From: a candidate division WOR-3 bacterium
Lineage (GTDB): Bacteria; Hydrothermota; Tepidihabitantia; Tepidihabitantales; Tepidihabitantaceae
Direction: 5' to 3'
DNA: 64,000 bases
NCBI GenBank assembly: GCA_965649295.1
Contig: CBFGKH010000010.1
Location: 32,716-96,715, forward strand
Shown here in pieces: positions 1 to 52,118 of this stretch; position 1 is the stretch's first letter; each line of letters starts with the position of its first letter. Below the pieces are notes generated by a model that made no database searches, had not been told where the DNA came from, and was given only the letters and a program-made list of their open reading frames with translations. A program made the translations under genes and the position numbers.

Positions 1-61
1 CGCGTACCACAGCGCTGACCGCCTCAATCAGCTCACGGACTTTGGGCAATGGTATCCGCAT
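1..61 (-). CDS. N-terminus of a probable 4Fe-4S subunit (NuoI/MbhN-like) of the hydrogenase complex, truncated by window edge
   Basis: ATG at 61, 3 nt after the mnhG stop; reads MRIPLPKVRELIEAVSAVVR, resembling N-termini of NuoI-like subunits in group-4 clusters; no Cys motifs visible. Confidence 0.5.
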   Translation of the reverse strand, partial: MRIPLPKVRELIEAVSAVVR

Positions 62-64
62 CTG

Positions 65-412
65 CTATTCCTCGATAATACTCGGTCGCCCGCGGTCAGC
101 GGTAAACTGATCCTTGACTGTATGCTTCCAGAGCTTGACACCAAAGATGAGCGAACCACGTGCCAACGCGTGAGCTGCAATTGGGACCGTGATCAATACG
201 AAGCCAGCGCAGAGCAATGCCTTAATGCCCAAAGCCGTGAACCCAGATAGCAAAAATACACCGAGCAGAATACCGCACGTACCCAAGGTGACACACTTGG
301 TAGCCGCCTGCATCCGATTGTACAAATCTGGGAATCTGACCAGTCCGATACAGCCAAGCAGAGTGAAAGCGACACCAGTGGCGATGGCTGCCCAGCCAAG
401 TACGCTAGTCAT
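65..412 (-). CDS. mnhG: Mrp/Mnh antiporter subunit G (MbhC-like)
   Basis: GLVRFPDLYNRMQAATKCVTLG and PIAAHALAR motifs; start placed at MTSV after GAAGGAG. Confidence 0.92.
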   Translation of the reverse strand: MTSVLGWAAIATGVAFTLLGCIGLVRFPDLYNRMQAATKCVTLGTCGILLGVFLLSGFTALGIKALLCAGFVLITVPIAAHALARGSLIFGVKLWKHTVKDQFTADRGRPSIIEE

Positions 413-659
413 CGAGACTCCTTCCTTCCAAGTACTTGGCCAGCGCCAACGTACCCACAAAGGAGATAACCGCCAGTGCGATTGAAAGGTCCATCAAATA
501 GGACAGCCGGTAACGCAAGGCCATCAAAGCAGTAATACTCGTGAAGATAACCGACATAATATCCACTGCTATCGCCCGATCTGGTATGCTCGGCCCTTTG
601 AGAGCACGGTAAAGGCAGAAGAACGCCCCGCCGACAAGAATCACGACCAGCGTTGTCAT
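405..659 (-). CDS. mnhF: Mrp/Mnh antiporter subunit F (MbhB-like)
   Basis: YRALKGPSIPDRAIAVD motif, 3 hydrophobic segments; ATG at 659 after GGAGG. Confidence 0.92.
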   Translation of the reverse strand: MTTLVVILVGGAFFCLYRALKGPSIPDRAIAVDIMSVIFTSITALMALRYRLSYLMDLSIALAVISFVGTLALAKYLEGRSLDD

Positions 660-670
660 ACTCGCCTCCG

Positions 671-1162
671 TCAATCGAAAATCCGTTTGAGGAAGAACTC
701 AAACGGCCCTATTATCCGTTTGGCCGCGGCATCCGGGTCGTCAGTCGTGACTTCGATCCAGTGGATGTACAAGGTGTCCTCTACCAGTTCGACTGACATA
801 GTACCAGGTGTCAGCGTTATTGAGTTAGCTAAGAAGACACGGGCGATATCAGACTTCAACGATGTTTTTATTCGAACAATCCCTGGGCGGAGCTCAAGCC
901 CAGGCGCAAGAACCCGAAGAGCGACGTCAACGTTAGCCCTGAGGCACTGCCACACAAAAACTGGAACGTAGACAAGTAACCAGAACCATCTAACCGGGTT
1001 CAGCAATCTTGCAAGGCCAACTGGGAAAACGTTTCCAAAGAAGATAGCAGCGAGCACCGCCGCACCGAGTCCGAAGACTAACTCCTGCCAACCAGTACTC
1101 CAGACCAGCAACAACCACACTCCAAGACACAGAACTAGGAGTGCGACCCGGCGCGCAATCAC
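671..1162 (-). CDS. mnhE: Mrp/Mnh antiporter subunit E (MbhA-like)
   Basis: LANSITLTPGT and LYIHWI motifs. Confidence 0.93.
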   Translation of the reverse strand: MIARRVALLVLCLGVWLLLVWSTGWQELVFGLGAAVLAAIFFGNVFPVGLARLLNPVRWFWLLVYVPVFVWQCLRANVDVALRVLAPGLELRPGIVRIKTSLKSDIARVFLANSITLTPGTMSVELVEDTLYIHWIEVTTDDPDAAAKRIIGPFEFFLKRIFD

Positions 1163-1165
1163 TTG

Positions 1166-2671
1166 CTAACCTCCCAGCACTCCAACTGCGTAACGAGAAC
1201 CATCAATGATGGCTTGGGCAGCTGGCCCGATTAGCCAGTCGAGCAGCGGCTTGAAGCCAACTCCGCCTACTAGCGAAAGCAGGACCAAGAACAACATAGC
1301 AGCTACCATTAGCACTGGTGATTCCCTGGCCGGTGTTGGCTCGGTTCCGGGCCGACTGAAGAAAGCACGGTCGACGACAGTTACAAAATAGCCAAGCGTC
1401 ACGACCGAAAACACTGCTGCAAAGACAGCAAGCCAGTACATTCGCGCATGGATTGCCGCGACGATGATGAACACCTTAGCAAAGAATCCAACAAACGGTG
1501 GAACACCAGCAAGTGAAAAGGCTGACAATATGAATGACCACGCCGTGAATGGCATTGTTCGCTCAAGGCCACGCAGGCCGCCGATATCGCGGCAACCGGT
1601 AGCATCTTGTACCGAACCGGCCGACAGAAACAGCGCACCCTTGCCAAGGGCATGGGCCAGAACCAAAAACAATGCACCAACGACACCCCAGTAGTTGCCG
1701 ATCCCAAGTCCGATAACCACGTAACCAACCTGGCTGATGCTCGAGTACGCCAACAATCGCTTCTGGTCGCGCTGAGCGTATGCCAAGACACCTCCGACAA
1801 CAACTGAAACCACGCCCAGCGCAACAAGCAGATCGAAGAACTGCGGTGCGCTTACGCGCGTCAGGCCGAAAACGTTGAACATCACTCGGCTCAGCGCATA
1901 AACGCCCAGCACTTTAGAAAACACACCGGCTAGCATTGCCGCGACCGGCGTTGGTGCCGACGGATAGACATCAGGCAGCCAGGCATGGAACGGAACCAGA
2001 GCCATCTTTATCGCAAAGCCGAAAACGAGTGTCGCGGCAATAAGCCAGAACAACGGCGTACGCCCAGCCGCATCAAGAGCCGTAGCGACCACTGCCATGT
2101 TCAATGCTGAGACCCGCGCATAGAGAAGCGCTATTGCTAACAAGATAGCCATCCCGCCGATCTCGCCGAGCACCATGTACTTGAAAGCAGCCTCCAACCC
2201 TTCTGCTTCGGTGCTGAAAGCGACGAGCGCGTAGGATGCAACCGCCGAAATCTCAACAAAGACGAAGAGATTGAACATGTCACCCGAGACCGCGACACCG
2301 TTCAAACCTGTCAGCATCAACATGAGCAGCGTATAGAACTTCCAGCGTCCTGTGTAACGATCAAGATAGCGCACGGCATAGACAGTCGCGGCCAATCCAA
2401 CTAGCGTAACTACCAAAACGACTAGTGCAGTGAGGCTGTCGTACACCAAAGTTATACCAAGATGAGAAGGCCACCCACCCATTCGATACACAACCGGAGC
2501 CTCACGGAGAATGACGTCGGATACACCCAAACCGGCAAGACCGACTAGCACCGCAGCGGCTGCACTGGCGACAACATCTGATCCTCGCGGCCACAACTTA
2601 GAAAGCAGGGGAATCAGAAACGCCACCGCCATCGGCAGCAACACCAAAGTTGGCACATAACGCGGATCCAT
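1166..2671 (-). CDS. mnhD: Mrp subunit D / MbhH-like proton-translocating antiporter subunit
   Basis: DMFNLFVFVEIS, KMALVPFHAWLPD, KRLLAYSSISQVGY; multi-TM. Confidence 0.9.
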   Translation of the reverse strand: MDPRYVPTLVLLPMAVAFLIPLLSKLWPRGSDVVASAAAAVLVGLAGLGVSDVILREAPVVYRMGGWPSHLGITLVYDSLTALVVLVVTLVGLAATVYAVRYLDRYTGRWKFYTLLMLMLTGLNGVAVSGDMFNLFVFVEISAVASYALVAFSTEAEGLEAAFKYMVLGEIGGMAILLAIALLYARVSALNMAVVATALDAAGRTPLFWLIAATLVFGFAIKMALVPFHAWLPDVYPSAPTPVAAMLAGVFSKVLGVYALSRVMFNVFGLTRVSAPQFFDLLVALGVVSVVVGGVLAYAQRDQKRLLAYSSISQVGYVVIGLGIGNYWGVVGALFLVLAHALGKGALFLSAGSVQDATGCRDIGGLRGLERTMPFTAWSFILSAFSLAGVPPFVGFFAKVFIIVAAIHARMYWLAVFAAVFSVVTLGYFVTVVDRAFFSRPGTEPTPARESPVLMVAAMLFLVLLSLVGGVGFKPLLDWLIGPAAQAIIDGSRYAVGVLGG

Positions 2672-2674
2672 CAG

Positions 2675-3013
2675 CTAACCCCGCAACTTCCTAATCTCAG
2701 CGATATCGAATGTTCGATACTTCTCGTAGATGCGCATCGCTATGGCTAGCATCAATGCAGTGGTGGCGAGGCCAATGACAATTGATGTTAGTACCAAGGC
2801 CTGCGGCAGGGGGTCAACGAAGTTACGAACTGCGCTCGACTGCGTGACGATAGGCGGCAGTGCGTCGCGTTTGAACCCCACAAGAGCAAAAAGGAGGTTC
2901 ACAGCATACTCAATCAGTGTGAAACCGATGACAATCTTCAACAAGTTGCGTTTGGCAACAACTGTGTACAGCCCGATGAGAAACATGAGCACACAAGCAA
3001 TTAGTGGTACCAT
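2675..3013 (-). CDS. mnhC: Mrp subunit C / MbhG-like
   Basis: RNLLKIVIG and VDPLPQALVLTSIVIG motifs. Confidence 0.93.
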   Translation of the reverse strand: MVPLIACVLMFLIGLYTVVAKRNLLKIVIGFTLIEYAVNLLFALVGFKRDALPPIVTQSSAVRNFVDPLPQALVLTSIVIGLATTALMLAIAMRIYEKYRTFDIAEIRKLRG

Positions 3014-3015
3014 GG

Positions 3016-3456
3016 CTAGTCCTTCATGACGAAACGGGACGCTCCCAGTGCCAAGAAGATCGCAAGCAGACCCGCACCAACTTTGATTCCGATCGCAATA
3101 TTAGCTGGCATTATCAAACCACCGGATAGGAGCTGCAACGGCTGTCCGATACCGAATACCGGCTTGTTGGAGAAGAACTCGACGCCGACCATGGCCCCGG
3201 CTACTGCCAGACCTACGAACGCAAGCCCACCAACGCTCTCCAGCGCCGACGAGAAGGTGTAGGAACTCTTCTCGACCTTCTCGACCGAACCAAAAGCAAG
3301 AGACTCCATTATGAACGCTGCCGCCACAAGCACACCTCCGGCGAATCCACCGCCCGGAGTCAAGTGACCATGCAAAATTATGTAGCAACCGTAAAGGAAG
3401 ACGATACCAGCCAGCAGTCTGACGATGACTTGGACAATTGTCGACATCCCCCGCAT
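3016..3456 (-). CDS. mnhB: Mrp subunit B / MbhF-like
   Basis: HGHLTPGGGFAGG and IGIKVGAG motifs; start approximate. Confidence 0.9.
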   Translation of the reverse strand: MRGMSTIVQVIVRLLAGIVFLYGCYIILHGHLTPGGGFAGGVLVAAAFIMESLAFGSVEKVEKSSYTFSSALESVGGLAFVGLAVAGAMVGVEFFSNKPVFGIGQPLQLLSGGLIMPANIAIGIKVGAGLLAIFLALGASRFVMKD

Positions 3457-3457
3457 A

Positions 3458-4000
3458 CTAACTCCTCTCTCCAAGAATGCCGGCTCGCCGGACTACGGTT
3501 AGCACGCCCACGACCGCGGTGAAAAGGACTGTCGCCTCGCCAAGCGTGTCATAGCCACGGAAGTCTAGGATAATTGCCGCAACAACATTCGCCGCGCCTG
3601 TCCGCTCGAGTCCAAGAGCAATATACTCTGTAGCAACTCGCAGCAGTGGACTTCCGAAAGCAGGTAACTCAGCGAAGGCCCTCGCAGCGAGGACAACTAG
3701 CAGGATTGCAAAAACGGCATAGGCAGCGGTGGCGCTCACCGACTCCCGACGGACGGAACTAGCCACAGTTGAATCGACGCTAGTCGAACGCAGAACAACA
3801 GCAGCAAAGAAAACAACCGTGAGGATTTCAACAAGGATCTGAACGATCGCCAAATCCGGCGCTTGTAGCAGTATGAACATAATCGCCACACTAAAACCGA
3901 CGATCCCGAGCGCCACCGCTGCGGCAAGCAGGTCCCTAATCTCGATAGCAATGACTCCCGCAACCAGCATCACCGCGAGCAGCACATAGAGCTCAATCAT
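3458..4000 (-). CDS. Fused MbhD-MbhE-like subunit (MrpA C-terminal part)
   Basis: LQAPDLAIVQ (MbhD/DUF4040-like) plus NVVAAIILDFRGYDTLGEATVL (MbhE-like). Confidence 0.85.
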   Translation of the reverse strand: MIELYVLLAVMLVAGVIAIEIRDLLAAAVALGIVGFSVAIMFILLQAPDLAIVQILVEILTVVFFAAVVLRSTSVDSTVASSVRRESVSATAAYAVFAILLVVLAARAFAELPAFGSPLLRVATEYIALGLERTGAANVVAAIILDFRGYDTLGEATVLFTAVVGVLTVVRRAGILGERS

Positions 4001-4003
4001 CCG

Positions 4004-5908
4004 CTACCTCGCCGCAAGCACAAGATATACTATCAATGCCCCCAAAAATACCCAACCGACGTACAACGGCAGAATACCAGTATGAATCATAGCAAGTGCC
4101 CGCCCAGTAGAGCGAACAAGCCTGCCTGAGGCCGACACAATCCAGTTAATGACATCGTGAACTGCCTCACGTAGTACAAGTCCGGCTCCGCGACTGACCG
4201 CCACCACCCATGAATATAGATCAAAAGCGCCAGCTTCACCGAACCGCAGCAGCTCACTGAGCAATGGTAGCTGCTTCACCGAGGTATAGAACGCCGTCCC
4301 CGTCACACGACTCTCCTCGTTGTCGGCGATTGATTCTCCACCAACGAACGTACGACCAACAATCGGCTTACGCGCTGTCCCCAGCAGGTAAAGGATCGCA
4401 CCAACGCCTAAAGCTATCACCAGCAGCACTGTCGCCTGCCGTGGCTCCCACCATCCAGGCAACATCACGCTGAACGGCAGTCCTGGATAGATAAGTGCTG
4501 ACAACGCCACTGGAAAAGCGAAAACACCAAACAGCACGCAAGTAGCAGCAAGCAGTACCGGCGGGAGCCACATTGCAAAGCTAACTTCATGCGCCCGAGC
4601 CAAAGATGCCGGCCGCTGACCGAAAAAGATAGCGTGCAGCAACTTCAGAAACGACGCAAGCGTTAAAACACTGCCCAACATTGCCGCTACGAGGTAGAAC
4701 GGGAAAACGCTGTTGCCTTCCCGCGCCAGCTCAATCACCCCCTGATAGACCATCCATTTGGAAACAAAACCATTTAGTGGTGGCATACCCGATATTGCCA
4801 GCGCCGCGACTAGGAATGAAAGCATCGTTAGAGGCATCTTTACTGCCAGCCCGCCAAGTTGATCAATTTCATCTGTCTTCGCGACACTTTCAACCGAACC
4901 AGCAGCAAGAAACAACCCTGTCTTGTATATCGAGTTGTTGAGCATATGAAACAGCCCCCCAGCGATACCCACCGGGACACCGGTACCGATCCCCAACACC
5001 ATGTAGCCGACTTGAGACACAGCATGGAATGAGAGCAAGCGCATTACCCGTTTCTGAACTAAAGCCATCAGCACGGCACCAAGGATCGTCACTGAACCAG
5101 TAACCATCAGCAGGGTGCGAACAGTCTGGTTGGTTGCAATGTCAAACAAACTAGTCGATATCCGAACAAGAAGGTATATACCAAGCAGCTTGTCAAGGGA
5201 TGCTGGAATGAACGCCATCACCGTGGCGGGTGACGATTCTGATGCCTTGGGAATCCAAGAATGGAATGGCATCGAACCTGCCTTGGCAAGCGCCCCCACC
5301 GCAACCAGCAAATAGGCAAGGACTGTTAGCGGTTCAAGTAACGGCCAAGGAGCTATCGGCATTAAGTCAATCCAATCGTGAACAATGAGCAATACCACAC
5401 CCAACAGCATAGCGAAGTCAGATAACCCAATTACCACCAGTGCCTTTGCTGCTGCTTGGCTGGCACCAGCGCGTCCGCTCAGTAGCAATCCGTAGGTTAC
5501 GGCAAGCAGAGAACCCCAGAAGAAGAGTAACACCGGCAGATTGGCCGAAGCCAATACTCCATTTGCGCAGGCAAGTGCCAACAACATGAAGAGGAAGTGA
5601 TTGCTGGCCTTAGGCTCACCACGAAGGTACCGCAAAGAATAGGTAAGTATCAGCACAGCGAAGATAGCAACGAACAACAACACAAAGCCTGACAAAGCGT
5701 CGAGTCGGAACGACAGCGGCAGACCACTGAGCCAACCGATATCGTACACTACGATCGTAGTCCGCGTCTTGATGAAAAGCAGCACCGCATAGAACAGCGA
5801 TGCAACTGTCCCGATGAAGCAGAATTCGTTGCGCAGACGCCGCACAACGAAACCAGCCACCCCAGCAGCGGCCGGAACCAGTAACAACATCAATATCGGG
5901 TGCGGCAT
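4004..5908 (-). CDS. NuoL/MrpA-like antiporter subunit with C-terminal extension
   Basis: KAGSMPFHSWIP, RLLSFHAVSQVGY, GMPPLNGFVSKW; C-terminal HTGILPLY. Confidence 0.88.
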   Translation of the reverse strand: MPHPILMLLLVPAAAGVAGFVVRRLRNEFCFIGTVASLFYAVLLFIKTRTTIVVYDIGWLSGLPLSFRLDALSGFVLLFVAIFAVLILTYSLRYLRGEPKASNHFLFMLLALACANGVLASANLPVLLFFWGSLLAVTYGLLLSGRAGASQAAAKALVVIGLSDFAMLLGVVLLIVHDWIDLMPIAPWPLLEPLTVLAYLLVAVGALAKAGSMPFHSWIPKASESSPATVMAFIPASLDKLLGIYLLVRISTSLFDIATNQTVRTLLMVTGSVTILGAVLMALVQKRVMRLLSFHAVSQVGYMVLGIGTGVPVGIAGGLFHMLNNSIYKTGLFLAAGSVESVAKTDEIDQLGGLAVKMPLTMLSFLVAALAISGMPPLNGFVSKWMVYQGVIELAREGNSVFPFYLVAAMLGSVLTLASFLKLLHAIFFGQRPASLARAHEVSFAMWLPPVLLAATCVLFGVFAFPVALSALIYPGLPFSVMLPGWWEPRQATVLLVIALGVGAILYLLGTARKPIVGRTFVGGESIADNEESRVTGTAFYTSVKQLPLLSELLRFGEAGAFDLYSWVVAVSRGAGLVLREAVHDVINWIVSASGRLVRSTGRALAMIHTGILPLYVGWVFLGALIVYLVLAAR

Positions 5909-5928
5909 AGACTATGACTCGCTTTCGT

Positions 5929-7311
5929 TCAAGACAAACCCCGCTCTAAGACCCCAGCCAGGAGTGGATAGAGTAACCCGAGACCTGTGGAAACAAGCGC
6001 TAGCAGCACAACGCAGAACGCCAATAGCCGATTCTCACGGGCTTCAATGCTAATAGTCGAAGGGCCGACAAAGACCCGGAATAGCCGCAACAAGTAAAGG
6101 ACCGTCAGCACCGCTGCCGCGATTGCACCAATACCAACAAGAAGATTGATTCGCACGGCCGCGGCTAGCACATAAAACTTACCGAAGAATCCAAGCAATG
6201 GTGGAATACCAACTACTGATAGCATTAGGAAGGCAGTCGCGACGGCGGTTACAGGCATCTGTCGGCCCACGCCGTTGAGTTCGTGGATATCGCGCTTGTG
6301 CGTGCTGTGTTCGACAACCCCATAGGCCAGAAACAAACCAGCCTTGGCTATGGCATGTCCAACAAGATAAACCAAACCAGCCAGCAGCCCGAGGATTGAG
6401 GGCAAGGCGAAACCAATGAACACGTAACCGAGCTGACTAACAGTCGAGAACGCCAGGACGCGCTTGACGTCTCGCTCTCGAAGCGCACAGCCACCAGCAA
6501 TCAAAGCACCACCGATCCCCAGACCGGCGACAAGCCAAGGCCACCACCAAGGCATCATAGCGCGGCTTTGGATGAATAGCTTGACATAAGCGACCAAACC
6601 CGCCTTGGCCACGACACCCGACAGCACCGCGCTCACTGGCGACGGCGCCGCCGAGTGTGCATCAGGTAACCAAACGTAAAGCGGTAGGCTAGCTGACTTT
6701 GTCACCATACCAACCAACAAGAGGATCGCAATCCAAGGCTCAATAGCGATACCGGCAAGCCCTGTCCAATCTAGCACACCGTAGTTGATATAGAGCGCCC
6801 CCAACCCAACAAGCATCAACGCCGAGCCAAAGAAGGTAATGAGCAAAGTCCGACTCGCAATTGCGATCTCGGCATCACGACGGTAGAAAGCAGTCAGACG
6901 CCAAGTCGAGATTCCCACAAGCTCCCAACAAAAGTACAAAACAATGAGGCTCCGCGAGAGACATAGTCCTACCATTCCCCCAAGCATCAGCAGCAGAAAA
7001 CCATAGTAATCATCAAGCGGGTCATAGGTACGGATGTACTCAAGCGAATAGACAGTGACAATCAACCAGATGCCAGCAAACACTGCGGCGAGCAACAGGC
7101 CAAGACTGTCAAGTCCGAAAAGTCGGCCGGCATCAACAGTTGCACCGTTTTGCCCGCCCAATGCCATGATGATGGCTACGATAATGGTTGTGACTGCCGC
7201 CCCAACGACAGCTATCCACTGCAGCAATCGCCGACTCAGACGTCGCAGCACTAGCGCGGTTAGCCCCAGCAGCAACGGCGTCAGAACAGCGGTAACCAGC
7301 AGCTGCCTCAC
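5929..7311 (-). CDS. NuoL/M/MrpD-like antiporter subunit
   Basis: YFCWELVG, KSASLPLYVWLPDAHSAAPSPVSA, KRVLAFSTVSQLGY. Confidence 0.88.
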   Translation of the reverse strand: MRQLLVTAVLTPLLLGLTALVLRRLSRRLLQWIAVVGAAVTTIIVAIIMALGGQNGATVDAGRLFGLDSLGLLLAAVFAGIWLIVTVYSLEYIRTYDPLDDYYGFLLLMLGGMVGLCLSRSLIVLYFCWELVGISTWRLTAFYRRDAEIAIASRTLLITFFGSALMLVGLGALYINYGVLDWTGLAGIAIEPWIAILLLVGMVTKSASLPLYVWLPDAHSAAPSPVSAVLSGVVAKAGLVAYVKLFIQSRAMMPWWWPWLVAGLGIGGALIAGGCALRERDVKRVLAFSTVSQLGYVFIGFALPSILGLLAGLVYLVGHAIAKAGLFLAYGVVEHSTHKRDIHELNGVGRQMPVTAVATAFLMLSVVGIPPLLGFFGKFYVLAAAVRINLLVGIGAIAAAVLTVLYLLRLFRVFVGPSTISIEARENRLLAFCVVLLALVSTGLGLLYPLLAGVLERGLS

Positions 7312-8495
7312 TTGCCGAACCTCTCCCTGATTGCCTCAGTCTTTGCCCAGGAAAGCTGCAAAAGCTCTCGCCCTGAGTAACGCATCCGACCATCCTCAAA
7401 CGCAGCCATTCGTTCAGTGCAACAATAGCACGGGTCAACGGCTGCCAAGGTCAAGGCAGCATCAGCTATTGAGCCACCACGAACCGCCACAACATTTGAG
7501 GCAATATTCATATAGCTCGGAGCTCGAACCTTGTGACGCAACGGTCGGTTGGTCCCATCTGAGCGAATATAATGAAATACCTCCCCACGTGGCGCCTCGG
7601 TTCTGCCAATACCCTCACCAGGGGGCACTTCGTCGATTCTCGTCTCGATTGGACCATCAGGTAGGTCTCTAAGACACGCTCGAATGATCTTAATCGACTC
7701 GAATATCTCAAGGAAACGGACCCTGGCCTTGGCAAAAACATCGCCCTCATTGAGGACAATCACATTCCATGGCACCCGGTCATAGGCACAGTGAGGCTCG
7801 TCCCGGCGAACATCGATGTCGACACCGGACGGCCGCGCAGTTGGGCCAACAACTGAGTAGGCGACTGCCTGCTCCCGTGTCAACCGCCCCACACCCTCAA
7901 GCCGAGCCCGAATCACCGGATCATCGAGTACGGCATTTGTAAGCATCATCGTCTTCCTCTCGACAATTGCCAACGCCGCCTCAATCTGCGGTATCTGTTC
8001 TGCTGTGATATCATGTCGAACACCGCCGGGCTTGTTCATGGCATAGTGGTTGCGGTTGCCGGTTATCGACTCGAAAACCTGCAGAACATGCTCACGGTAA
8101 CGCCAAGCCCACATCCAGACTGTGTTATAACCGATGAAATGACCGGCAAGACCCACCCAAAGTAAATGGGAGTGAATTCGTTCTAGTTCATGGACGATGG
8201 TCCGGAGGTAGTCTGCTCGTGGTGGCGGCTTGATACCAGCACAATCCTCGATTGCCAGTACGCAGGCAAGTGGGTGCGAATTCGAGCAGATACCACAGAT
8301 TCGCTCAACCAGAAAAGGAATCTGGTCGTAAGTTAGTTCAGGGGAAATGAACTCGTGTCCTCGATGATTGTACCCCAGATGAATCTCCAAATCCACAACC
8401 TTCTCGCCCTCGACGATAAGCTTGAAAAACTCAGGTTCTTCCTGAAGCGGATGATAGGGACCAATCGGCACAATTCGTCGCCCGTTACCGCTCAT
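7308..8495 (-). CDS. Group-4 [NiFe]-hydrogenase large subunit (MbhL/EchE-like)
   Basis: ERICGICSNSH (L1) and DPCYCCTER (L2) CxxC pairs, GPYHP, EAPRGE; ~33-aa C-terminal tail; start after GAGGTGAG. Confidence 0.92.
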   Translation of the reverse strand: MSGNGRRIVPIGPYHPLQEEPEFFKLIVEGEKVVDLEIHLGYNHRGHEFISPELTYDQIPFLVERICGICSNSHPLACVLAIEDCAGIKPPPRADYLRTIVHELERIHSHLLWVGLAGHFIGYNTVWMWAWRYREHVLQVFESITGNRNHYAMNKPGGVRHDITAEQIPQIEAALAIVERKTMMLTNAVLDDPVIRARLEGVGRLTREQAVAYSVVGPTARPSGVDIDVRRDEPHCAYDRVPWNVIVLNEGDVFAKARVRFLEIFESIKIIRACLRDLPDGPIETRIDEVPPGEGIGRTEAPRGEVFHYIRSDGTNRPLRHKVRAPSYMNIASNVVAVRGGSIADAALTLAAVDPCYCCTERMAAFEDGRMRYSGRELLQLSWAKTEAIRERFGK

Positions 8496-8937
8496 GAAAC
8501 TCACCTCGACGTTCGTAGTCACGGCGCAAAGGACGTTGACTGGCATCCCAATCGGTATCAGAAGTGAGCAACGGTTTCAGACCAGGATGGCCGACAAAGT
8601 CAATGCCCAATAGCTCATGCATCTCACGTTCAATCCAATCGGCGGCGGGAAACCAGGTTGCCTGTGACTCCACTGATGGATCATCCTTGGGTAGTAGAAC
8701 TTTAAGAGTATAGATTATGCCCGTATTATCGTCCGAGAAGTGATAAAGAACCTCGAAACCATCGCGGGTATCAATACCCGTGCAGATCGATAATCGCATG
8801 CCACAGTCACAGTGCAAATATCGTGCGGCAGCAGTTACGCTTCCGCGCGGTATTCGGATATATAGACGGCGCGGGTTGTGTTCAAGTACATCAAGTTGGG
8901 GAACGAAACGACGGAGACCATCGAGGATCGAACTCAT
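8485..8937 (-). CDS. NuoC/MbhK-like subunit
   Basis: ADWIEREMHELLGIDFVGHP motif. Confidence 0.9.
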   Translation of the reverse strand: MSSILDGLRRFVPQLDVLEHNPRRLYIRIPRGSVTAAARYLHCDCGMRLSICTGIDTRDGFEVLYHFSDDNTGIIYTLKVLLPKDDPSVESQATWFPAADWIEREMHELLGIDFVGHPGLKPLLTSDTDWDASQRPLRRDYERRGEFHER

Positions 8938-9350
8938 AGTTTACTCAGTGCCTTGACCACTCCGAGAATCATCGCCTCCGGCTTGGGCGGGCAGCCGGGC
9001 ACATAAGCGTGCACCGGAATGTGTCTATCATACGGGCCAACGACATTGTAGGAATTTCGGAAAATGTGGCAGTTGCAGGCACATGAACCGATTGCAATCA
9101 CCAGGCACGGTTTGGCAGTCTGCTGATACACTTCAAGTACCCGAGGCAGTGACTTTCGGTTGACTACCCCAGTCACAAGCAGCGCATCAGCGTGGCGCGG
9201 TGAACCCACCAGCACTACCCCAAATCGTTCCACGTCATAACGTGGAGTAAGCAGTTCAAGTATCTCAATGTCACAGTTGTTGCAGGGCGCCGCCGCCAAA
9301 TGATACACCCAGGGTGACTTCTTAAGACCCCAGAGTTTCGCCCGGCTCAT
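8934..9350 (-). CDS. [NiFe]-hydrogenase small subunit (NuoB/MbhJ-like)
   Basis: CNNCDIE, SPRHADALLVTG, GSCAC, PGCPPKPE. Confidence 0.92.
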   Translation of the reverse strand: MSRAKLWGLKKSPWVYHLAAAPCNNCDIEILELLTPRYDVERFGVVLVGSPRHADALLVTGVVNRKSLPRVLEVYQQTAKPCLVIAIGSCACNCHIFRNSYNVVGPYDRHIPVHAYVPGCPPKPEAMILGVVKALSKL

Positions 9351-10276
9351 AGTCCTACCCATGCCAAACCAACTGCAACTACTCCTAACAGGCCGAGTCC
9401 AAGCCAGAAAAACCTCAGCGCGTGATCAATCTTGAACCGAGGATTGGTGTTCTTTAACAGAATCATTAGCACGACAACAGCAAGCACCTTGGGAATTGCC
9501 CACCAACTTGCAAGACCGCCCCACAGCAATGTTACCAGGAAGACCGGCAGTAGTAAGAACATCATCGCCTTTGTTAGTCGGAAGACGGCTAGCGGCGCTC
9601 CCGAGTACTCAACCATCACGCCGGTCATGATCTCCTGCTCCGCCTCGGCGATATCAAACGGAACGTAGCCAAGTTTGGCCTGGAAGCAGATTAGCACGAT
9701 TATAGTGGCGAGCAGACCGGAAATGGAGTACAGGAAAGGTCCAGCATCCATCTGCAGCAGCACAAGCTCGCCGAGCTTTATTGCACCGCCACTCTTGATA
9801 ATCGGCACCGCCAAGGCTAGCAAAAATGGTAGTTCGTAACCCAAGTACAGTGTCATTTCGCGAGAAGCACCAACCGCACCAATCGGATTGCGTGATGCTG
9901 AGGCCCCTATGATTGTCGCGAGCGGCGGCAGCGCGAGCAGGTAAACAAGCACCAGCACGTCGCCAACGAACGACCGGTTAGGAACAAAACTTGCCGCGAA
10001 AAGCATCACTGCAATAACGCACATTGCTGCCAAACCAAGCAGTGGTGCAAACAGAAAAGTAGTTCGGGCAGCCCCAGTTGGTACAATCGTTTCCTTGACA
10101 AGGAGCTTCAGCATGTCCGCAAAAGGCTGGTAGAAAGGCGGTCCCTGCCGCCACTGGACACGCGCCGAGACGAATCGGTCCACCCAAGTGAGCACAAGCC
10201 CAAGTGTAGCCGTGAACACAAAACCAGGAAAGACGAGAAAGGCGAAAACCAATCCCCAACCGGCAAGCCAGTTCAC
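9347..10276 (-). CDS. NuoH/MbhM-like membrane subunit
   Basis: ARVQWRQGPPFYQPFADMLKL, PFDIAEAEQE, NPRFKID. Confidence 0.92.
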   Translation of the reverse strand: MNWLAGWGLVFAFLVFPGFVFTATLGLVLTWVDRFVSARVQWRQGPPFYQPFADMLKLLVKETIVPTGAARTTFLFAPLLGLAAMCVIAVMLFAASFVPNRSFVGDVLVLVYLLALPPLATIIGASASRNPIGAVGASREMTLYLGYELPFLLALAVPIIKSGGAIKLGELVLLQMDAGPFLYSISGLLATIIVLICFQAKLGYVPFDIAEAEQEIMTGVMVEYSGAPLAVFRLTKAMMFLLLPVFLVTLLWGGLASWWAIPKVLAVVVLMILLKNTNPRFKIDHALRFFWLGLGLLGVVAVGLAWVGL

Positions 10277-10740
10277 TGGCGCCTCCCGTGCGGGGAACGA
10301 GCAACAAAGCCAACCCCAACCCTGACCTCATCGGCCGGTTCTGCCTCGACAAACTGCAACGCTCCGGTGGGACAAGTAGTGGCGCAGCGCGGGCCTTCCG
10401 GACGATCACCACAAAGGCTGCACTTTTGGCTCACGCGCCGTAACAGTGTTGTCTCAATGGCACCGAATGGACAGGCAAGCGCACATGAACGGCAGCCGAT
10501 GCAATGGAAGCTTGAACGCAAAACAAGACCACTCTCTGGATCGCGCCTGATCGCCCCAGAAGGACAAGCCGCAAGACAAAGTGGTTCCTGACAATGACGG
10601 CAAGACATCGGCAGCAACACGGCTGAGGCAACTTCGGCGTGTCGAACCCGAGCTTCCCCCTTGAAGCGACTGCGACAAGCTGCTTCGCAAGCTCGACAGC
10701 CGATGCAGTAGTCCAGCCTCAGTTGAAGCCTTCTCGCCAT
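10273..10740 (-). CDS. 4x[4Fe-4S] electron-transfer protein (FdhB/HydN/CooF-like)
   Basis: CIGCRACEAAC, CRHCQEPLCLAACP, CIGCRSCALACP, KCSLC..CATTCP. Confidence 0.9.
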   Translation of the reverse strand: MARRLQLRLDYCIGCRACEAACRSRFKGEARVRHAEVASAVLLPMSCRHCQEPLCLAACPSGAIRRDPESGLVLRSSFHCIGCRSCALACPFGAIETTLLRRVSQKCSLCGDRPEGPRCATTCPTGALQFVEAEPADEVRVGVGFVARSPHGRRQ

Positions 10741-12350
10741 CAGTAAGCTGCCTCCAGTGGGTAGCGACGGGAAGATGTTGTCGGCCGAATTTCTACTGCG
10801 GCTGGAGGTATTGCTGGAGATCCAGCCGCATCAGCAACAATTCCGAACAACGCTCGGTTCTCACGTGCGTTGACACCGACTACTGCCGTACCGGCTGGTA
10901 CGGCCGGCGTGCGCCGTAGCCGCAGCGTTCGCTCACTTGTACTAGTTCTGAGAACAACCTCATCAACGGTCTGCCCCAACTCATTGTCGGGACCCACCGT
11001 AACGTCTTGTTCGTCAACGTAAAGACCACCAAGACCGATGGCCCGCTTCTCACCAACGAGCCGCAGTGAAGAAGGATTCTGCCAGCGCGCCAGTTCAGTT
11101 TGAGCTAGGTCGGCAATAGCTTCGACTCCGGCTGGAGGGACCGTTGACTCGCCCAGCGGAGCGATGGGGGCGAACTCTTCTAGAATCTGGCCCACCCGAC
11201 GACTACCACTAAACGGTGCAGCCAGTGGCCATCGTCGCACCGCTCCCCAATAGCCAACTCCGGTTGATTCCTTTTCCAGCTCACTCGGAACCGGTAGAAC
11301 TAATCCACGTAATGGCCGGATCGGTCGGAAAATGCTAGTAACCACGATATGCTCAATCTGAGCAGTCTCTGGAAAAAGCTCGGGATAGCTCAAGGGATGG
11401 AGCGAGCCAAACCAGAACAGCGTTCGCAACGTATTGCTGGCCGCTGCCTGACGCAACTGCTCAAACGTATTCGGCCCCAGCCGCACGCGTCCTTCTGCAA
11501 AACCGGTAAACGTTGCTTTCGCCTGCACAGCCAAAAGCTGAGAAGCGTAGCTGTGCAAAGTTGGAAGAGCGGTTCTACCGAGACCGGCAGCACTACCGAC
11601 AAAGGCCAATCCGGTCTTCAGCATGTTTGCCGCCGCCTGTAGTTGTCCAAGTTCGACACCGGCAGCCGCGGCAAGTTGTTCAGCCCCAAGACCGATCTTT
11701 GCACCCAACAGAGCAGCGATTCCGAGCAAAGCAAACGGTTCAGCCCCGGGCCGAACTAGAATACTCAAGTGAGCAAGAGTATCCTGGGCTGTTCGCAGCG
11801 AGTCGATAACGATCAAGCGGTTTTGGCGATTAGCGTAGCGCCATTCCACAATCATTCCGCCGGCAACTGGCGACGTCGCAAAAACGTCGCCAACCAGCAA
11901 AATCGTCTTGGCGCCGCGAACATCGTCCAGACCAGCCTCGCGCACTCCAGCAACTTTCTGGCCGAACAGGTTGCCAGGTTCGATATAGCCACACACAAGC
12001 AGCTGCGCCCTGACAGCTCGAGCGAATCCCCAAACCAAGTCAAGCTCGTCGCCAGTTAGCCCACGGCTGTAGGCAACGGCAAGACGGCCGTCCTGACCAG
12101 CAGCCAAAGCCCTACGACAGTACTCCAACGCCTGCCCCCAGCTCACTTCCCGACCATCGAGCAATGGATAGCCGAGTCTTCGCGGATGGTCGAGCACAAT
12201 GCTGGCACTGTTCCCACGCGGACACAGCCGACCGCGATTGACCACCGCGTCAGACGGATACTCCATTCGGTACTGATAGCCATCGAAAACAACCTCGGAC
12301 TCGCACCCGTTCAAACAAAACGGGCAGGTAGTCCTGTTCCGCGTCAGCAT
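10740..12350 (-). CDS. Divergent molybdopterin-oxidoreductase/NuoG-like protein with N-terminal [4Fe-4S] site
   Basis: TTCPFCLNGC...VNRGRLCPRG, VSWGQAL, LIVID, VRPGAE, VLP..ELEKE; start MLTRN overlaps upstream stop. Confidence 0.75.
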   Translation of the reverse strand: MLTRNRTTCPFCLNGCESEVVFDGYQYRMEYPSDAVVNRGRLCPRGNSASIVLDHPRRLGYPLLDGREVSWGQALEYCRRALAAGQDGRLAVAYSRGLTGDELDLVWGFARAVRAQLLVCGYIEPGNLFGQKVAGVREAGLDDVRGAKTILLVGDVFATSPVAGGMIVEWRYANRQNRLIVIDSLRTAQDTLAHLSILVRPGAEPFALLGIAALLGAKIGLGAEQLAAAAGVELGQLQAAANMLKTGLAFVGSAAGLGRTALPTLHSYASQLLAVQAKATFTGFAEGRVRLGPNTFEQLRQAAASNTLRTLFWFGSLHPLSYPELFPETAQIEHIVVTSIFRPIRPLRGLVLPVPSELEKESTGVGYWGAVRRWPLAAPFSGSRRVGQILEEFAPIAPLGESTVPPAGVEAIADLAQTELARWQNPSSLRLVGEKRAIGLGGLYVDEQDVTVGPDNELGQTVDEVVLRTSTSERTLRLRRTPAVPAGTAVVGVNARENRALFGIVADAAGSPAIPPAAVEIRPTTSSRRYPLEAAY

Positions 12351-13162
12351 CACCAGGGATCCTCGATATCCTTGACCTGTTCCCACGTGAGAACTGGGCC
12401 ATCCTTGCAGGCGAGATAAGGACCCACACGACAATGACGGCACTGACCAACACCACAAGACATGTTCTTTTCCATTGAAAGATAGATGTTGTTACCGGCG
12501 AAACCAGCCTCAACCAAGCGCATAGTAACGAACTTCATCATAATCGGTGGCCCACAAACGACTGCCACGGCCGTCTTCGTGTCGCAAGGGACTTCATCCA
12601 TGAGACAGGTAACCACACCTACCTTGCGCATCCAGCGTTCGTCGCGTACGTCGACCGATAGGTCGATATCAACCTTGGGTAGCTTCTCCCACTCCTTCAA
12701 CTGTGTCTTATACACGATATCATCAGGTGTCCGAGCTCCGTACCGAAGGTAGATCCGTTTGTACTTATCAATCTCGTGAACCAGGGCAAGAAAAAGCGCC
12801 CGCAATGGGGCCAGTCCAACACCGCCCCCGACAATATAGACCTCACGGCCCTCGAACTTCTCAAGTGGATAGCGCTTTCCATAAGGACCGCGTACGCCAA
12901 CTTGAGCACCTGGCCCCAACTCAAACAACGCACCTGTCGCCCTACCGACCTTCATAATCGTCATCTCAAAGGTATCGCGGACAAAGTGCGATGACGACGG
13001 TGTGAACGGTGCTTCGCCGAAGCCGGGAATGGTGAGTTCAACGAATTGACCGGCAAGGAATGGTATTTCCTTCTCCGGCTTCAGGACAAAAGTTCGGATG
13101 TTTGGCGTTTCCTGTACCACGCTCAAAATAGTCGCTGGCACTGGTTGGTAAGGATTGATCAT
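12350..13162 (-). CDS. FAD/NAD(P)-binding [2Fe-2S] oxidoreductase (sulfhydrogenase gamma HydG/AsrB-like)
   Basis: RGPYG, GGGVGLAPLR, VCGPPIMM, MSCGVGQCRHC..CKDGPV. Confidence 0.92.
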   Translation of the reverse strand: MINPYQPVPATILSVVQETPNIRTFVLKPEKEIPFLAGQFVELTIPGFGEAPFTPSSSHFVRDTFEMTIMKVGRATGALFELGPGAQVGVRGPYGKRYPLEKFEGREVYIVGGGVGLAPLRALFLALVHEIDKYKRIYLRYGARTPDDIVYKTQLKEWEKLPKVDIDLSVDVRDERWMRKVGVVTCLMDEVPCDTKTAVAVVCGPPIMMKFVTMRLVEAGFAGNNIYLSMEKNMSCGVGQCRHCRVGPYLACKDGPVLTWEQVKDIEDPW

Positions 13163-14184
13163 ACCTCTGCCAACACCTTCCGAATATCAATACCGCCCAT
13201 GCAAGCCCGGAAACACCGTCCACAACCAGAACAGGCATAGAAGCCGTGGTCGTTCTTGAACTGATTCCACTTGCAGTCGAAGCGATTGGCGAAACGTTTA
13301 AGGAACTTACCCCGGTCGTTAGCGCCACCACCAACTCGGGCATAAGCCGCCTCATAGCATGCATCCCAGACCCTGATGCGCTCAAAGCCTGAATCGCTGG
13401 CTCGATCATAGAGCAAGAAACAGTAGCAGGTCGGACAGCCAAAAAGGCAGCCGTAGCACTCAACGCAGTGCTGGGCATGTCGTTCCCAAAAAGCGGCGTC
13501 AAGGAGACGCTTCTCTATCGCTCGCGACAAATCGCTGTTCCAGGGCTGGGGATTGATCTGTTGCAGTTGTTGCTCAGCGCGCCGGCGCTGTTCAGCGCGT
13601 TGTTCTAATTCAGCTTCGGTCGCCGGACGGAACAAACCCGGAGCTACCTTCACGAGTCGCTCTCCCACCTCGGTCAATGTCTCAATCAACAACCGGTCTA
13701 CCAACGCAGTAACGACAGCATCAGCGCCTTCGGTCGAGTAGGGCTTATTGCCAAGAAGATTACAAAAACAACTGGGCTCGGGTTTCGGACAATCGGCGAC
13801 GACCTTCACTGTTCCCGCAATTCGAGCCAAGTAGAACGGATCCGCATACTCGCCCTGACCAAGTATCCGTTCATGCACGCGGAGCGGCACAAGGTCGCAG
13901 TTCTTCATGCCAAAAACAACCTGATGCGCGGCAACCGGCTCTGGCGCCTTTGGCATCCCAGCCACAACTGCACGCGGGCTGAAGAGAAACGACTTTACTG
14001 GTTCGGCAGCCCGAATACCGCCAAGGGCCCGAAGCAACTCAGTGCCGTCAACAATCGCTCCGGCGGTATACCTCTGCCAGTGAACTTGAGAATCAACTAT
14101 CGTGGGGACGTATACCGTAGCGCCGTCAAGCAGGCTCGCAAGCCACGTTTCCATCTTGGAAGCTTCGATTGCGAACCTGCTCAC
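13159..14184 (-). CDS. [4Fe-4S] protein, sulfhydrogenase beta (HydB/AsrA-like)
   Basis: CVECYGCLFGCPTCYCF, RVWDAC, CSGCGRCFRAC; GTG start inferred from promoter. Confidence 0.88.
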   Translation of the reverse strand: MSRFAIEASKMETWLASLLDGATVYVPTIVDSQVHWQRYTAGAIVDGTELLRALGGIRAAEPVKSFLFSPRAVVAGMPKAPEPVAAHQVVFGMKNCDLVPLRVHERILGQGEYADPFYLARIAGTVKVVADCPKPEPSCFCNLLGNKPYSTEGADAVVTALVDRLLIETLTEVGERLVKVAPGLFRPATEAELEQRAEQRRRAEQQLQQINPQPWNSDLSRAIEKRLLDAAFWERHAQHCVECYGCLFGCPTCYCFLLYDRASDSGFERIRVWDACYEAAYARVGGGANDRGKFLKRFANRFDCKWNQFKNDHGFYACSGCGRCFRACMGGIDIRKVLAEV

Positions 14185-14192
14185 GGATAGCA

Positions 14193-14220
14193 AAAATAGA
14201 GACCCTTCTTCATTTGTCAA
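14193..14220 (-). promoter_or_regulatory. sigma70-like promoter of hydrogenase operon
   Basis: TTGACA-N16-TATTTT, 8 nt before GTG at 14184. Confidence 0.6.
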
Positions 14221-14392
14221 GTTCGACTTTGCGTTTTGTTAGTGCCGCTGAGAACTCACCATCCGAATCTTCGGTCGCCGTTCTGAGAGACAACGCTGTG
14301 AACGGATCGATGATCGTGGCAATAGCTCCCCAGCTTGTCCCTCGCCACAATCGACATGCCGATGGCTTGGTTCGATGAACGACCACTGGCTC

Positions 14393-14420
14393 TTGACCCG
14401 CCGAGTTGTTGGCCTAGAAT
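14393..14420 (+). promoter_or_regulatory. sigma70-like promoter
   Basis: TTGACC-N16-TAGAAT, 9 nt before ATG 14430. Confidence 0.7.
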
Positions 14421-14429
14421 CCTGCGCCA

Positions 14430-15272: not shown

Positions 15273-15307
15273 GTGTCTGAAGGGATGCTATTTGATTGGA
15301 GGAGCTG

Positions 15308-17182: not shown

Positions 17183-17194
17183 GGGCGTCGCACT

Positions 17195-19327: not shown

Positions 19328-19451
19328 TCCACTACTCCTGCCGGCCACAAAGCGACGAGGCCGAGCAGAAAATGCCCGGCCCCGTACCAATCGCGCCCGA
19401 AGCGCGATGTTCAGCACTAACCCGTACCCCCTGGGTGCTCTGTGGTGCTGA

Positions 19452-19524
19452 TGGAGCTGACCAGAGTCGAACTGGCGACCCCCTGCTTGCAAAGCAGGTG
19501 CTCTCCCAACTGAGCTACAGCCCC
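19452..19524 (-). tRNA. tRNA-Ala(TGC)
   Basis: GGGGCTG/CAGCTCC acceptor stem with G3:U70, anticodon TGC, GTTCGA T-loop; no encoded CCA. Confidence 0.96.
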
Positions 19525-19597
19525 GGATGTATTCGTCTGCCTGAATCTTAGTCTGCCAAGCGATTATGGTCAAGCTACTCGGTTCGACGTCTGGAAG

Positions 19598-19625
19598 TTG
19601 ACTCAATACCGTCCGTGATTAGATT
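19598..19625 (+). promoter_or_regulatory. sigma70-like promoter (leaderless CDF mRNA)
   Basis: TTGACT-N16-TAGATT, 7 nt before ATG 19633. Confidence 0.7.
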
Positions 19626-19632
19626 GATTCTA

Positions 19633-51626: not shown

Positions 51627-51627
<1 letters not shown>
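51046..51627 (-). CDS. ntpE: V/A-type ATPase subunit E
   Basis: N-terminal coiled coil, GGVVIRS; operon context. Confidence 0.8.

Positions 51628-52118
<491 letters not shown>

Follow-up and report, generated by a model that had tools for sequence, protein, structure and literature searches.

The 64,000-nucleotide stretch of DNA analyzed here, called the window throughout, covers positions 32716-96715 of contig CBFGKH010000010.1 (contig C10 of genome G000) of a candidate division WOR-3 bacterium (assembly GCA_965649295.1), and harbors at its left end an operon for a membrane-bound [NiFe]-hydrogenase of group 4, joined to a predicted NAD(P)H module and to an Mrp-type antiporter module. The 2.28-Mb genome lies on 19 contigs and is rated 100% complete with 0.58% contamination. 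Genes were called from a listing of open reading frames (ORFs) together with Pfam and NCBIfam matches, and the final operon gene was completed with contig sequence from beyond the window's left edge (locus L001). The ORF listing revealed 18 minus-strand genes (g1 to g18) in an unbroken row from window position 14220 down past position 1. At each of the 17 junctions, the neighboring genes overlap or are separated by 20 nt at most, the widest gap being that of g9 and g10 (20 nt), and the first two junctions are overlaps of 4 nt (g1/g2) and 1 nt (g2/g3). The 18 genes are hence assigned to one tightly coupled operon, the parts of which are all present and intact. A preliminary description of this DNA had counted at least 18 tightly coupled minus-strand genes; 18 were borne out, and every gene that it had named was matched by Pfam or NCBIfam in the order given.

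The operon opens with g1 (HunA, 13159..14220 on the minus strand, as are all genes of the row), which encodes an iron-sulfur subunit similar to HydB, ShyB, and AsrA (Pfam Fer4_22, 4.2e-21; NCBIfam ShyB, 6.3e-34, and HydB, 9.3e-33). It is followed by g2 (HunB, 12350..13162), coding for a HydG/AsrB-like flavoprotein predicted to bind FAD, NAD(P), and a [2Fe-2S] cluster (NAD_binding_1, 2.6e-15; DHODB_Fe-S_bind, 5.7e-08; FAD_binding_6, 2e-05). The 536-aa product of g3 (10740..12350) is a putative formate dehydrogenase-derived subunit with Molybdop_Fe4S4 (4.1e-06) as the sole Pfam domain above threshold, and g4 (HunC, 10273..10740) encodes a polyferredoxin resembling HycB, CooF, and DmsB (Pfam Fer4_11, 6.1e-20; NCBIfam HydN, 1e-18, and DmsB, 2.3e-24). 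Next are g5 (9347..10276; Pfam NADHdh, 2.6e-58), a membrane anchor like NuoH, MbhM, and HycD; g6 (8934..9362; Pfam Oxidored_q6, 4.2e-28), a hydrogenase small subunit like NuoB, MbhJ, and HycG with the Cys motifs PCNNC, GSCAC, and PGCPP; g7 (8485..8937; Pfam Complex1_30kDa, 1.3e-25), a NuoC/MbhK-like subunit; and g8 (HunG, 7308..8495; Pfam Complex1_49kDa, 1.5e-66, and NiFeSe_Hases, 2.8e-14), the large subunit of the [NiFe]-hydrogenase.

Two antiporter-like subunits follow, namely, the 460-aa product of g9 (5929..7311; Pfam Proton_antipo_M, PF00361, 4.2e-59) and the 634-aa product of g10 (4004..5908; Pfam Proton_antipo_M, 2.6e-45, and Proton_antipo_N), the latter like the MrpA N-domain, NuoL, and MbsH'. 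The row continues with g11 (3458..4000), in which MbhD (1e-14) and MbhE (1.7e-08) together form the equivalent of the MrpA C-terminal domain; g12 (3016..3474), MrpB/MbhF (MnhB, 2e-23); g13 (2675..3013), MrpC/MbhG/NuoK-like (Oxidored_q2, 2e-27); g14 (1166..2671), MrpD/MbhH and thus the third antiporter-like subunit (Proton_antipo_M, 4.6e-66); g15 (671..1162), MrpE/MbhA (MNHE, 1.2e-40); g16 (405..674), MrpF/MbhB (MrpF_PhaF, 3.2e-14); and g17 (65..460, start probably ATG 412), MrpG/MbhC (PhaG_MnhG_YufB, 1.5e-23). The last gene, g18 (HunP), is split by the window edge, its first 20 codons lying inside (1..61) and the other 186 at L001 9441-10000 (559 nt outside), so that the whole gene spans L001 9441-10061. 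What had been taken for a probable NuoI is thereby a real gene, coding for a 206-aa NuoI/HycF/MbhN-like subunit with two [4Fe-4S] sites (Pfam Fer4_7, 7.9e-14) and matching the NCBIfam model of the formate hydrogenlyase iron-sulfur subunit (NF009053, 1.3e-25).

The g8 product contains RICGICSNSH as its L1 motif and DPCYCCTER as its L2 motif and hence keeps both NiFe-binding CxxC pairs, in agreement with the preliminary description. The CGIC...CYCC signature was found in 13 of 14 full-length g8 relatives, the exception being locus L028, with CYSC. The best matches among solved structures were MbhL (6cfw_L, 1.9e-79) and HycE (7z0s_E, 2.9e-74), followed by MbsL, and this similarity places g8 among the group 4 [NiFe] large subunits. 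As g8 is the only gene with a PF00346 match in the genome, and therefore its sole NuoD homolog, the genome is without complex I. Hydrogenase maturation genes are present, comprising HypD (1.8e-142), an AIR-synthase-fold (HypE-like) gene beside it, and a HycI-type protease (1e-11).

In the membrane arm, the best structural matches of g9 were MrpA (6z16_A, 1.1e-45) and MbhH (8.7e-43). The NCBIfam NuoL model aligned with g10 over residues 8-631, i.e., its whole length, and the PDB matches of this subunit were MbhH (6.2e-42), MrpA (4.4e-37), and the 618-aa MBS subunit 6u8y_X (1e-34). The g11 product aligned in NCBIfam with the MrpA C-terminus (residues 603-760), and g14 was identified as the MbhH/MrpD ortholog (6cfw_H, 5.8e-78, full length). 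The operon is accordingly read as holding a complete Mrp A-G set, with MrpA split between g10 and g11 and MrpB-G given by g12-g17, plus one extra antiporter-like subunit; the three ion-pumping subunits counted at the outset thus correspond to g9, g10, and g14. We infer Na+/H+ exchange by the Mrp module, and its ion specificity, from homology. The membrane-bound hydrogenase (MBH) of Pyrococcus furiosus (6cfw) is among the closest known systems, its MbhL and MbhH being matched by g8 and g14, and counterparts of its MbhA-G, J, K, M, and N subunits are all found here. A single antiporter-like subunit and the direct use of ferredoxin are features of MBH, whereas three such subunits are encoded here, and MBH is without HycB-like, Fdh-like, or HydB/HydG-like subunits.

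By gene content, gene order, and the HunG signature, the operon can be classed as encoding a Hun-type complex. In the Hun section of their preprint, Glass et al. (bioRxiv 10.1101/536078) described this architecture from genome data as the "Hun" supercomplex of 16 subunits (hunA-P) and reported it from Atribacteria, Firmicutes, Omnitrophica, Elusimicrobia, and Bacteroidetes metagenome-assembled genomes (MAGs) and from the cultured Kosmotoga. HunG was there assigned to HydDB group 4g, distant from other members of 4g and with the signature CGIC...CYCC, and a protein with a 4Fe-4S molybdopterin domain was noted between HunB and HunC in some MAGs. The operon of the window agrees with that description in having the AsrA/AsrB-like HunAB first, then an iron-sulfur protein, the module of NuoH, NuoB, NuoC, and large subunit, the antiporter-like and Mrp subunits, and a NuoI-like gene at the end, as well as in the large-subunit signature and in g3, which corresponds to the optional molybdopterin-domain protein. 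It differs in having 18 genes against the 16 subunits of that section, the extras being one antiporter-like subunit and the Fdh-like gene, and in its host, which seems to belong to a lineage not named there. The same gene set was described in Saganbacteria RX5A, where the group 4 [NiFe] hydrogenase was called "enigmatic" (Matheus Carnevali et al., 2019; PMC6349859); that cluster belongs to another phylum, and the passages on it hold no statement on dyad loss or on molybdenum cofactor (Moco) biosynthesis, both of which are treated below. The novelty implied by the preliminary description is therefore not upheld, as the architecture had been published and named and was known from genomes in both of these accounts, so far as the sections cited go. 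The present copy is a new member, with 18 genes and a host lineage that the Hun section (bioRxiv 10.1101/536078) does not name, and three points are added, namely, a phylum-wide case for a molybdopterin-free formate dehydrogenase relic, the conservation of the nucleotide and flavin motifs of g2, and the finding of module paralogs dedicated to other partners.

The conservation of the operon was analyzed with g3, its most distinctive part, as the probe. A word-indexed search retrieved 114 relatives of ∼540 aa, and the named ones were nearly all from candidate division WOR-3. In a survey of 272 genomes of the phylum, the g3 family was present in 127, being near-universal in the class of the window (41/43, 10/10, and 31/31 genomes of families f1, f2, and f14, respectively). 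Sixteen loci, one genome per species, were mapped by tblastn with 19 query proteins, and all of them were collinear with the window to the limits of their contigs, in the order HydB, HydG, Fdh-like, HycB, NuoH, NuoB, NuoC, large subunit, two antiporter-like subunits, MbhDE, and MrpB-E. Of a second set of seven loci from more distant families of the same phylum (L023-L029), five were collinear as well. L023, L027, and L029 showed the complete order, MrpG and the NuoI-like gene included, and so did L024 until its stretch ends at MrpG; the g18 homolog is the last operon gene in L023, L026, L027, and L029; L025 contained homologs of g3, g4, and g6 only. The g1-g2 pair was collinear with the hydrogenase in four further families also. 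The hydB/hydG-like genes are thus syntenic with the hydrogenase and mrp genes, as loci across families are collinear, which was the check that the preliminary description had proposed. In L028, the HydB and HydG genes stand directly before HycB and NuoH, and the Fdh-like gene is missing.

Two of these distant loci showed further deviations. L026 (genome G166, same order) has a leaner operon with one antiporter-like subunit and without counterparts of g9 and g14, so that members of the family differ in how many pump modules they have. In L028 (genome G260, another class of the phylum; 3829-7641 and 10885-19815), the NuoB and NuoC genes of the Hun-like operon are separated by ∼1.2 kb of unassigned sequence. 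A second, shorter cluster lies upstream in the same locus, with HydB-like, Fdh-like, HycB-like, and NuoI-like genes and a large-subunit homolog whose aligned part (query residues 42-332) is without the L1 NiFe motif, the L2 position lying beyond the aligned part.

The two genes heading the operon are homologous to the β and γ subunits of P. furiosus sulfhydrogenase 1 (9nez), a group 3b enzyme. The g1 family profile matched the β subunit (9nez_B) at 7.4e-53 over nearly the full length, and g2 matched the γ subunit (9nez_C) at 2.5e-46. Sixteen Cys residues of g1 (108, 144, 151, 153, 252, 255, 258, 262, 265, 267, 288, 316, 330, 333, 336, and 340) were invariant in 12 sequences. In an alignment of 15 g2 sequences, consisting of 13 operon-linked copies and two paralogs from the same genome, G49, E50, and F53 of the flavin-site stretch GEAPFTPSS were invariant, as were the RGP motif, C203-G-P-P, and the [2Fe-2S] ligands Cys236, Cys241, Cys244, and Cys252, and in the nucleotide-site stretch GGGVGLAPLR all residues except one Val were invariant or at least 90% kept. 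The g2 family thus keeps its FAD, NAD(P), and [2Fe-2S] motifs throughout, in keeping with the NAD(P)H module that had been proposed from the window. Unlike in the sulfhydrogenase, this module adjoins membrane-bound group 4 catalytic subunits and not soluble α and δ subunits. Sulfhydrogenase 1, the nearest solved homolog of g1 and g2, is taken here to be NADPH-linked and non-bifurcating.

Two further HydB/HydG-like pairs occur in the genome, one after HdrC-HdrB-HdrA-MvhD on contig C2 and the other after a polyferredoxin on contig C3. Since these pairs adjoin other partners, the pair behaves as a portable module located beside the enzyme it serves. This arrangement bears on a rival reading that has g1 and g2 working for a soluble hydrogenase from another locus, with no more than co-transcription tying them to the membrane complex. 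Contig C9 encodes another [NiFe] hydrogenase, which has no adjoining diaphorase genes and may borrow a module; however, g1 and g2 are translationally coupled to g3 through the 4-nt and 1-nt overlaps, they are syntenic with the membrane operon across families, and the pair beside HdrCBA-MvhD would be a more natural partner for an Mvh-like enzyme. From coupling, synteny, and the other pairs, service in trans was judged very unlikely. The C2 cluster itself (G000:C2:173440-180209; L022 2440-9209) encodes HdrC-like, HdrB-like (CCG), and HdrA-like proteins, MvhD, a 280-aa unknown protein, and the HydB-like and HydG-like subunits, and it looks like an NAD(P)H-linked complex of the heterodisulfide reductase type using a paralog of the g1/g2 module.

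The g3 product lies between this module and the polyferredoxin, and no PF00384 match was obtained for it. Its [4Fe-4S] site (C9, C12, C16, and C43) was invariant in 30 close family members, and in a wider set of 33 sequences three of the four Cys were invariant and the fourth at least 90% kept. The best PDB match of the profile built from the 30 members was the F420-dependent FdhA (9t1s_L, 8.6e-30), with FdhF of hydrogen-dependent CO2 reductase and FdhH also found. The AlphaFold model of g3 (pLDDT 91) showed the Mo/W-bisPGD fold, and Foldseek aligned it with FDH1 (7vw6_A) and with FdhF/FdhH in the Escherichia coli formate hydrogenlyase (FHL; 7z0t_A) at a TMq of 0.79, NuoG/Nqo3 standing lower in the list (NuoG of 8e9g, 8.2e-22). 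When aligned with the formate dehydrogenases, "CARLXH" of the latter fell over "CGYIEP" of the g3 family, so that Glu-Pro occupies the place of the Cys/Sec-His dyad. The dyad position was compared in g3 of the window, 27 short (520-615 aa) relatives, and five canonical (∼670 aa) relatives, all cluster representatives. Three of the canonical proteins had Cys-His and two Cys-Gln, and Cys at this position was found in none of the 28 short proteins.

The host genome gave a corresponding picture, for MoaC, the MoaA C-domain, MoeA_N, and PF00384 proteins were all not found in it, and the search for each of them was positive in 11 of 14 control genomes. MoaC was detected in 33 of the 272 genomes of the phylum, i.e., in 3 of the 127 with the g3 family (two of these matches being short fragments at contig ends) versus 30 of the 145 without it; related genomes are not independent, and the contrast overstates the statistical support, although its direction is clear. 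The host is hence predicted to make no molybdopterin, and g3 appears to be a cofactor-less relic of a formate dehydrogenase that has lost its Cys/Sec-His dyad. An FDH-like sequence that could not be placed was mentioned for a WOR-3 MAG in the part of the Lost City study concerned (PMC9469722).

A formate hydrogenlyase of the Thermococcus Fdh-Mfh-Mnh type, with g3 oxidizing formate, was considered as another reading. The fold and best sequence matches of g3 are those of formate dehydrogenases, g4 is HycB-like, and g18 is HycF-like, and the wiring order from an FdhF-like through HycB-like, HycF-like, and HycG-like subunits to the large subunit is shared with both E. coli FHL (7z0s/7z0t) and Fdh-Mfh-Mnh. 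A full Mrp module is part of the Thermococcus system and not of E. coli FHL. The operon differs from both in the absence of Sec/Cys-His from g3, in a host without Moco synthesis genes, and in the added NAD(P)H module. With Glu-Pro at the dyad of g3, the dyad lost from the other short relatives too, no PF00384 match, and no route to the cofactor detected in a genome rated complete, g3 was rejected as a working formate dehydrogenase, and this alternative is scarcely credible.

The g3 subunit is instead best read as an electron-conducting docking scaffold with one [4Fe-4S] cluster, paralleling the C-terminal domain of NuoG; that this molybdoenzyme-like protein is a scaffold and not a catalyst had been proposed beforehand and is in line with the Glu-Pro dyad and the missing Moco genes. 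Since the g3 profile is far closer to Fdh than to Nqo3/NuoG (8.6e-30 versus 4.7e-09), its degeneration is taken to have arisen separately from that of NuoG. The adjoining g4 protein has 16 Cys residues, all invariant in 13 sequences and enough for four [4Fe-4S] clusters. A complex prediction for g3 (1-521), g4 (1-148), and g1 (23-352) with custom alignments scored 0.18 against a mark of 0.32, a result that speaks neither for nor against their binding. The resemblance to complex I noted in the preliminary description is an apt analogy, as in both cases a flavoprotein for NAD(P)H is connected with the NuoI/NuoB chain by a dead molybdoenzyme fold serving as an iron-sulfur scaffold. In contrast to complex I, the flavoprotein here is of the FNR/PyrK type and not NuoF, the operon is without a Complex1_51K domain (the one that was seen adjoins the [FeFe] hydrogenase gene on contig C6), and the terminal site would be NiFe in place of quinone, g8 keeping all four NiFe Cys.

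Taken together, the complex would be an Mrp-linked membrane [NiFe]-hydrogenase of group 4, in which an FHL-style wire lengthens the cytoplasmic arm and an NAD(P)H module of the sulfhydrogenase type forms its cap. Electrons could pass from NAD(P)H to the FAD and [2Fe-2S] cluster of g2, then to the iron-sulfur clusters of g1 and the [4Fe-4S] cluster of g3, and onward through the four clusters of g4, the two of g18, and the single cluster of g6, ending at the NiFe site of g8. In its second half, this path would follow the iron-sulfur cluster order of E. coli FHL, as suggested by the homology of g3, g4, g8, and g18 to FdhF, HycB, HycE, and HycF. Redox turnover at the g8/g6/g5 interface may be coupled to ion movement through g9, g10, and g14 and the Mrp Na+/H+ module (g10-g17). 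Given the established potentials of NAD(P)H (-320 mV) and H2 (-414 mV), the formation of H2 from NAD(P)H costs ∼18 kJ/mol at standard state, and the enzyme should therefore be reversible. An arm with three pumps could not be driven by this step; hence, H2 evolution would be powered by the gradient, or else pumping by the oxidation of H2. In the forward mode, the ion gradient would be consumed to vent NAD(P)H electrons as H2, and in the reverse mode, at high H2, ions would be pumped while NAD(P)+ is reduced. The genome context (POR_N proteins, Rnf, [FeFe] hydrogenase, and V/A-type ATPase) allows both directions. We regard NAD(P)H as the likelier donor because a complete, conserved NAD(P)/FAD subunit is retained among the first genes of the operon, also in L028, from which the Fdh relic is missing, and the complex is, on balance, probably a reversible, ion-coupled NAD(P)H:H+ oxidoreductase.

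Several points weigh against NAD(P)H as the donor. The g18 subunit is homologous to MbhN, presumably the ferredoxin-docking subunit of MBH, through which ferredoxin could enter. The genome is rich in ferredoxin-reducing enzymes, with eight POR_N matches (2-oxoacid:ferredoxin oxidoreductases), and it also has Rnf and a HydABC-like [FeFe] hydrogenase, so that NADH/ferredoxin-to-H2 routes already exist in it. Three pump modules are hard to square with the small energy between NAD(P)H and H2 if pumping takes place during H2 evolution. No biochemical study of Hun was found in the open-licence PMC and bioRxiv literature, by which work in subscription journals may be missed. Lastly, the authors of the Hun section predicted ferredoxin as the donor by analogy with Asr, HydDB group 4g being annotated as ferredoxin-coupled (bioRxiv 10.1101/536078).

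The published Hun model is accordingly the main rival, i.e., an H2-evolving, ion-pumping Mbh in which HunABC or the NuoI-like subunit accepts electrons from ferredoxin that 2-oxoacid oxidation has reduced, the H+/Na+ gradient feeds an ATP synthase, and g2 is a side branch or regulatory exit. Three antiporter-like subunits would suit the larger driving force from ferredoxin to H2, and the POR_N proteins and the V/A-type ATPase encoded in the window fit such a scheme. The closest solved large subunit, MbhL, belongs to MBH, an enzyme that we take to depend on ferredoxin. The model, however, leaves unexplained a complete and conserved FAD/NAD(P) subunit as the second gene of the operon in the relatives compared. 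It also rests on AsrAB taking ferredoxin electrons, whereas the β/γ pair that is nearest to g1 and g2 among solved structures is, as assumed above, linked to NADPH; the conserved NAD(P)/FAD motifs found here argue likewise for NAD(P)H. A ferredoxin-coupled Mbh is therefore regarded as a serious but rather unlikely explanation.

An enzyme with two donors (confurcating) or two acceptors was also considered, in which the NiFe site receives electrons from ferredoxin as well as from NAD(P)H, or electrons of H2 and ferredoxin are shared out to NAD(P)+ in the manner of MBX plus Nfn, with the gradient balancing the energetics. Two potential entry points are present, namely, the g2 flavoprotein and the ferredoxin-like surfaces of g18 and g4, and a PyrK-type homolog of g2 occurs in NfnI (5jca_S, 7.3e-09). 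The operon is nevertheless without a flavin subunit of the GltD/NfnB or HydB/NuoF type, which we take to be the carriers of the bifurcating flavin, and the sulfhydrogenase is assumed not to bifurcate, which makes this arrangement improbable.

If the NAD(P)H-coupled reading is extended to its origin, Hun could be a reverse-running analog of complex I, acting as an NAD(P)H:H+ oxidoreductase driven by the ion gradient or, when H2 is high, as an H2:NAD(P)+ oxidoreductase that pumps ions, with an input arm assembled independently of complex I from sulfhydrogenase β/γ, a Moco-less Fdh scaffold, and an FHL-type wire. This is put forward tentatively and held with less than even confidence. To our knowledge, the electron sources of all characterized group 4 hydrogenases are ferredoxin, formate, CO, or F420-linked carriers. 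A member coupled to ions and linked to NAD(P)H, if true, would link the pyridine-nucleotide pool, H2, and the membrane potential directly in fermenters and would be an enzyme dedicated to shedding NAD(P)H electrons as H2 at the expense of a gradient, a process long postulated for fermenters and syntrophs. The way in which complex I may have acquired its NADH module would have a living parallel in it, and it would be a second, convergent invention of a "flavoprotein plus dead molybdoenzyme" N-module. The family is abundant, as judged from the occurrence of g3 in the phylum, and the operon described here is one more copy of a published and named architecture. Since hun has been reported in several phyla and in the cultured Kosmotoga in the section cited (bioRxiv 10.1101/536078), its function should be open to bench testing.

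At the upstream end of the operon, the ORF of g1 opens with the TTG at 14220, which is probably not the true start of the gene. The homologs of g1 align from ∼13 residues before Trp26, and the true start is hence probably GTG 14184 or ATG 14154. The TTG at 14220 coincides with the -35 hexamer of a promoter-like sigma-70 match, TTGACA-16-TATTTT (14193..14220, minus strand), which agrees with the consensus at 10 of 12 positions. A scan of the stretch for the sigma-70 consensus gave 10 sites versus 7.4 expected from shuffles, which is not significant overall, and the match is only suggestive of an operon promoter. A Rex-box consensus gave 0 matches in the whole window with up to three mismatches against 1.79 expected, and thus no sign of Rex control. 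Among the sequencing runs listed for window positions 7000-14400, none with RNA was found.

Three plus-strand genes at 14430-19327 diverge from the upstream region of the operon and encode a metallo-β-lactamase-fold protein, an acetyl-CoA hydrolase/transferase-GNAT fusion, and an ADP-forming acyl-CoA synthetase, a set representing substrate-level-phosphorylation chemistry typical of fermenters. At the other end, a minus-strand ORF of 168 aa with an N-terminal hydrophobic stretch (L001 8766-9272) lies 168 nt downstream of g18 and is followed by purL. As it had no Pfam or NCBIfam family match and no downstream counterpart in the related loci compared, it was rejected as a 19th gene of the operon.

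Elsewhere in the genome, the second [NiFe] hydrogenase (G000:C9:46010-48453; L018 6011-8454) consists of a small subunit (325 aa) and a large subunit (489 aa) only, flanked by EF-G and glycosyltransferase genes, with no diaphorase or partner genes alongside. The [FeFe] hydrogenase (650 aa, with a NuoG-like N-terminus) adjoins a NuoF-like flavoprotein of 393 aa (G000:C6:34400-37537; L019 7401-10538), a HydABC-like layout that is possibly bifurcating. Rnf is represented by two adjacent genes of the Rnf-Nqr family (PF02508) of the RnfA/RnfE type at G000:C10:3837-4999, ∼28 kb from the operon. The V/A-type ATPase operon lies inside the window at 51046-51627, 51627-52109, and 52119-54344, all on the minus strand. 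Its proteolipid, of 160 aa, is built of two PF00137 repeats, and the residues PGTQG, WQG, and VETYA that occur in it presumably resemble those binding Na+ in the NtpK ring of Enterococcus hirae, which would fit Na+-based energetics.

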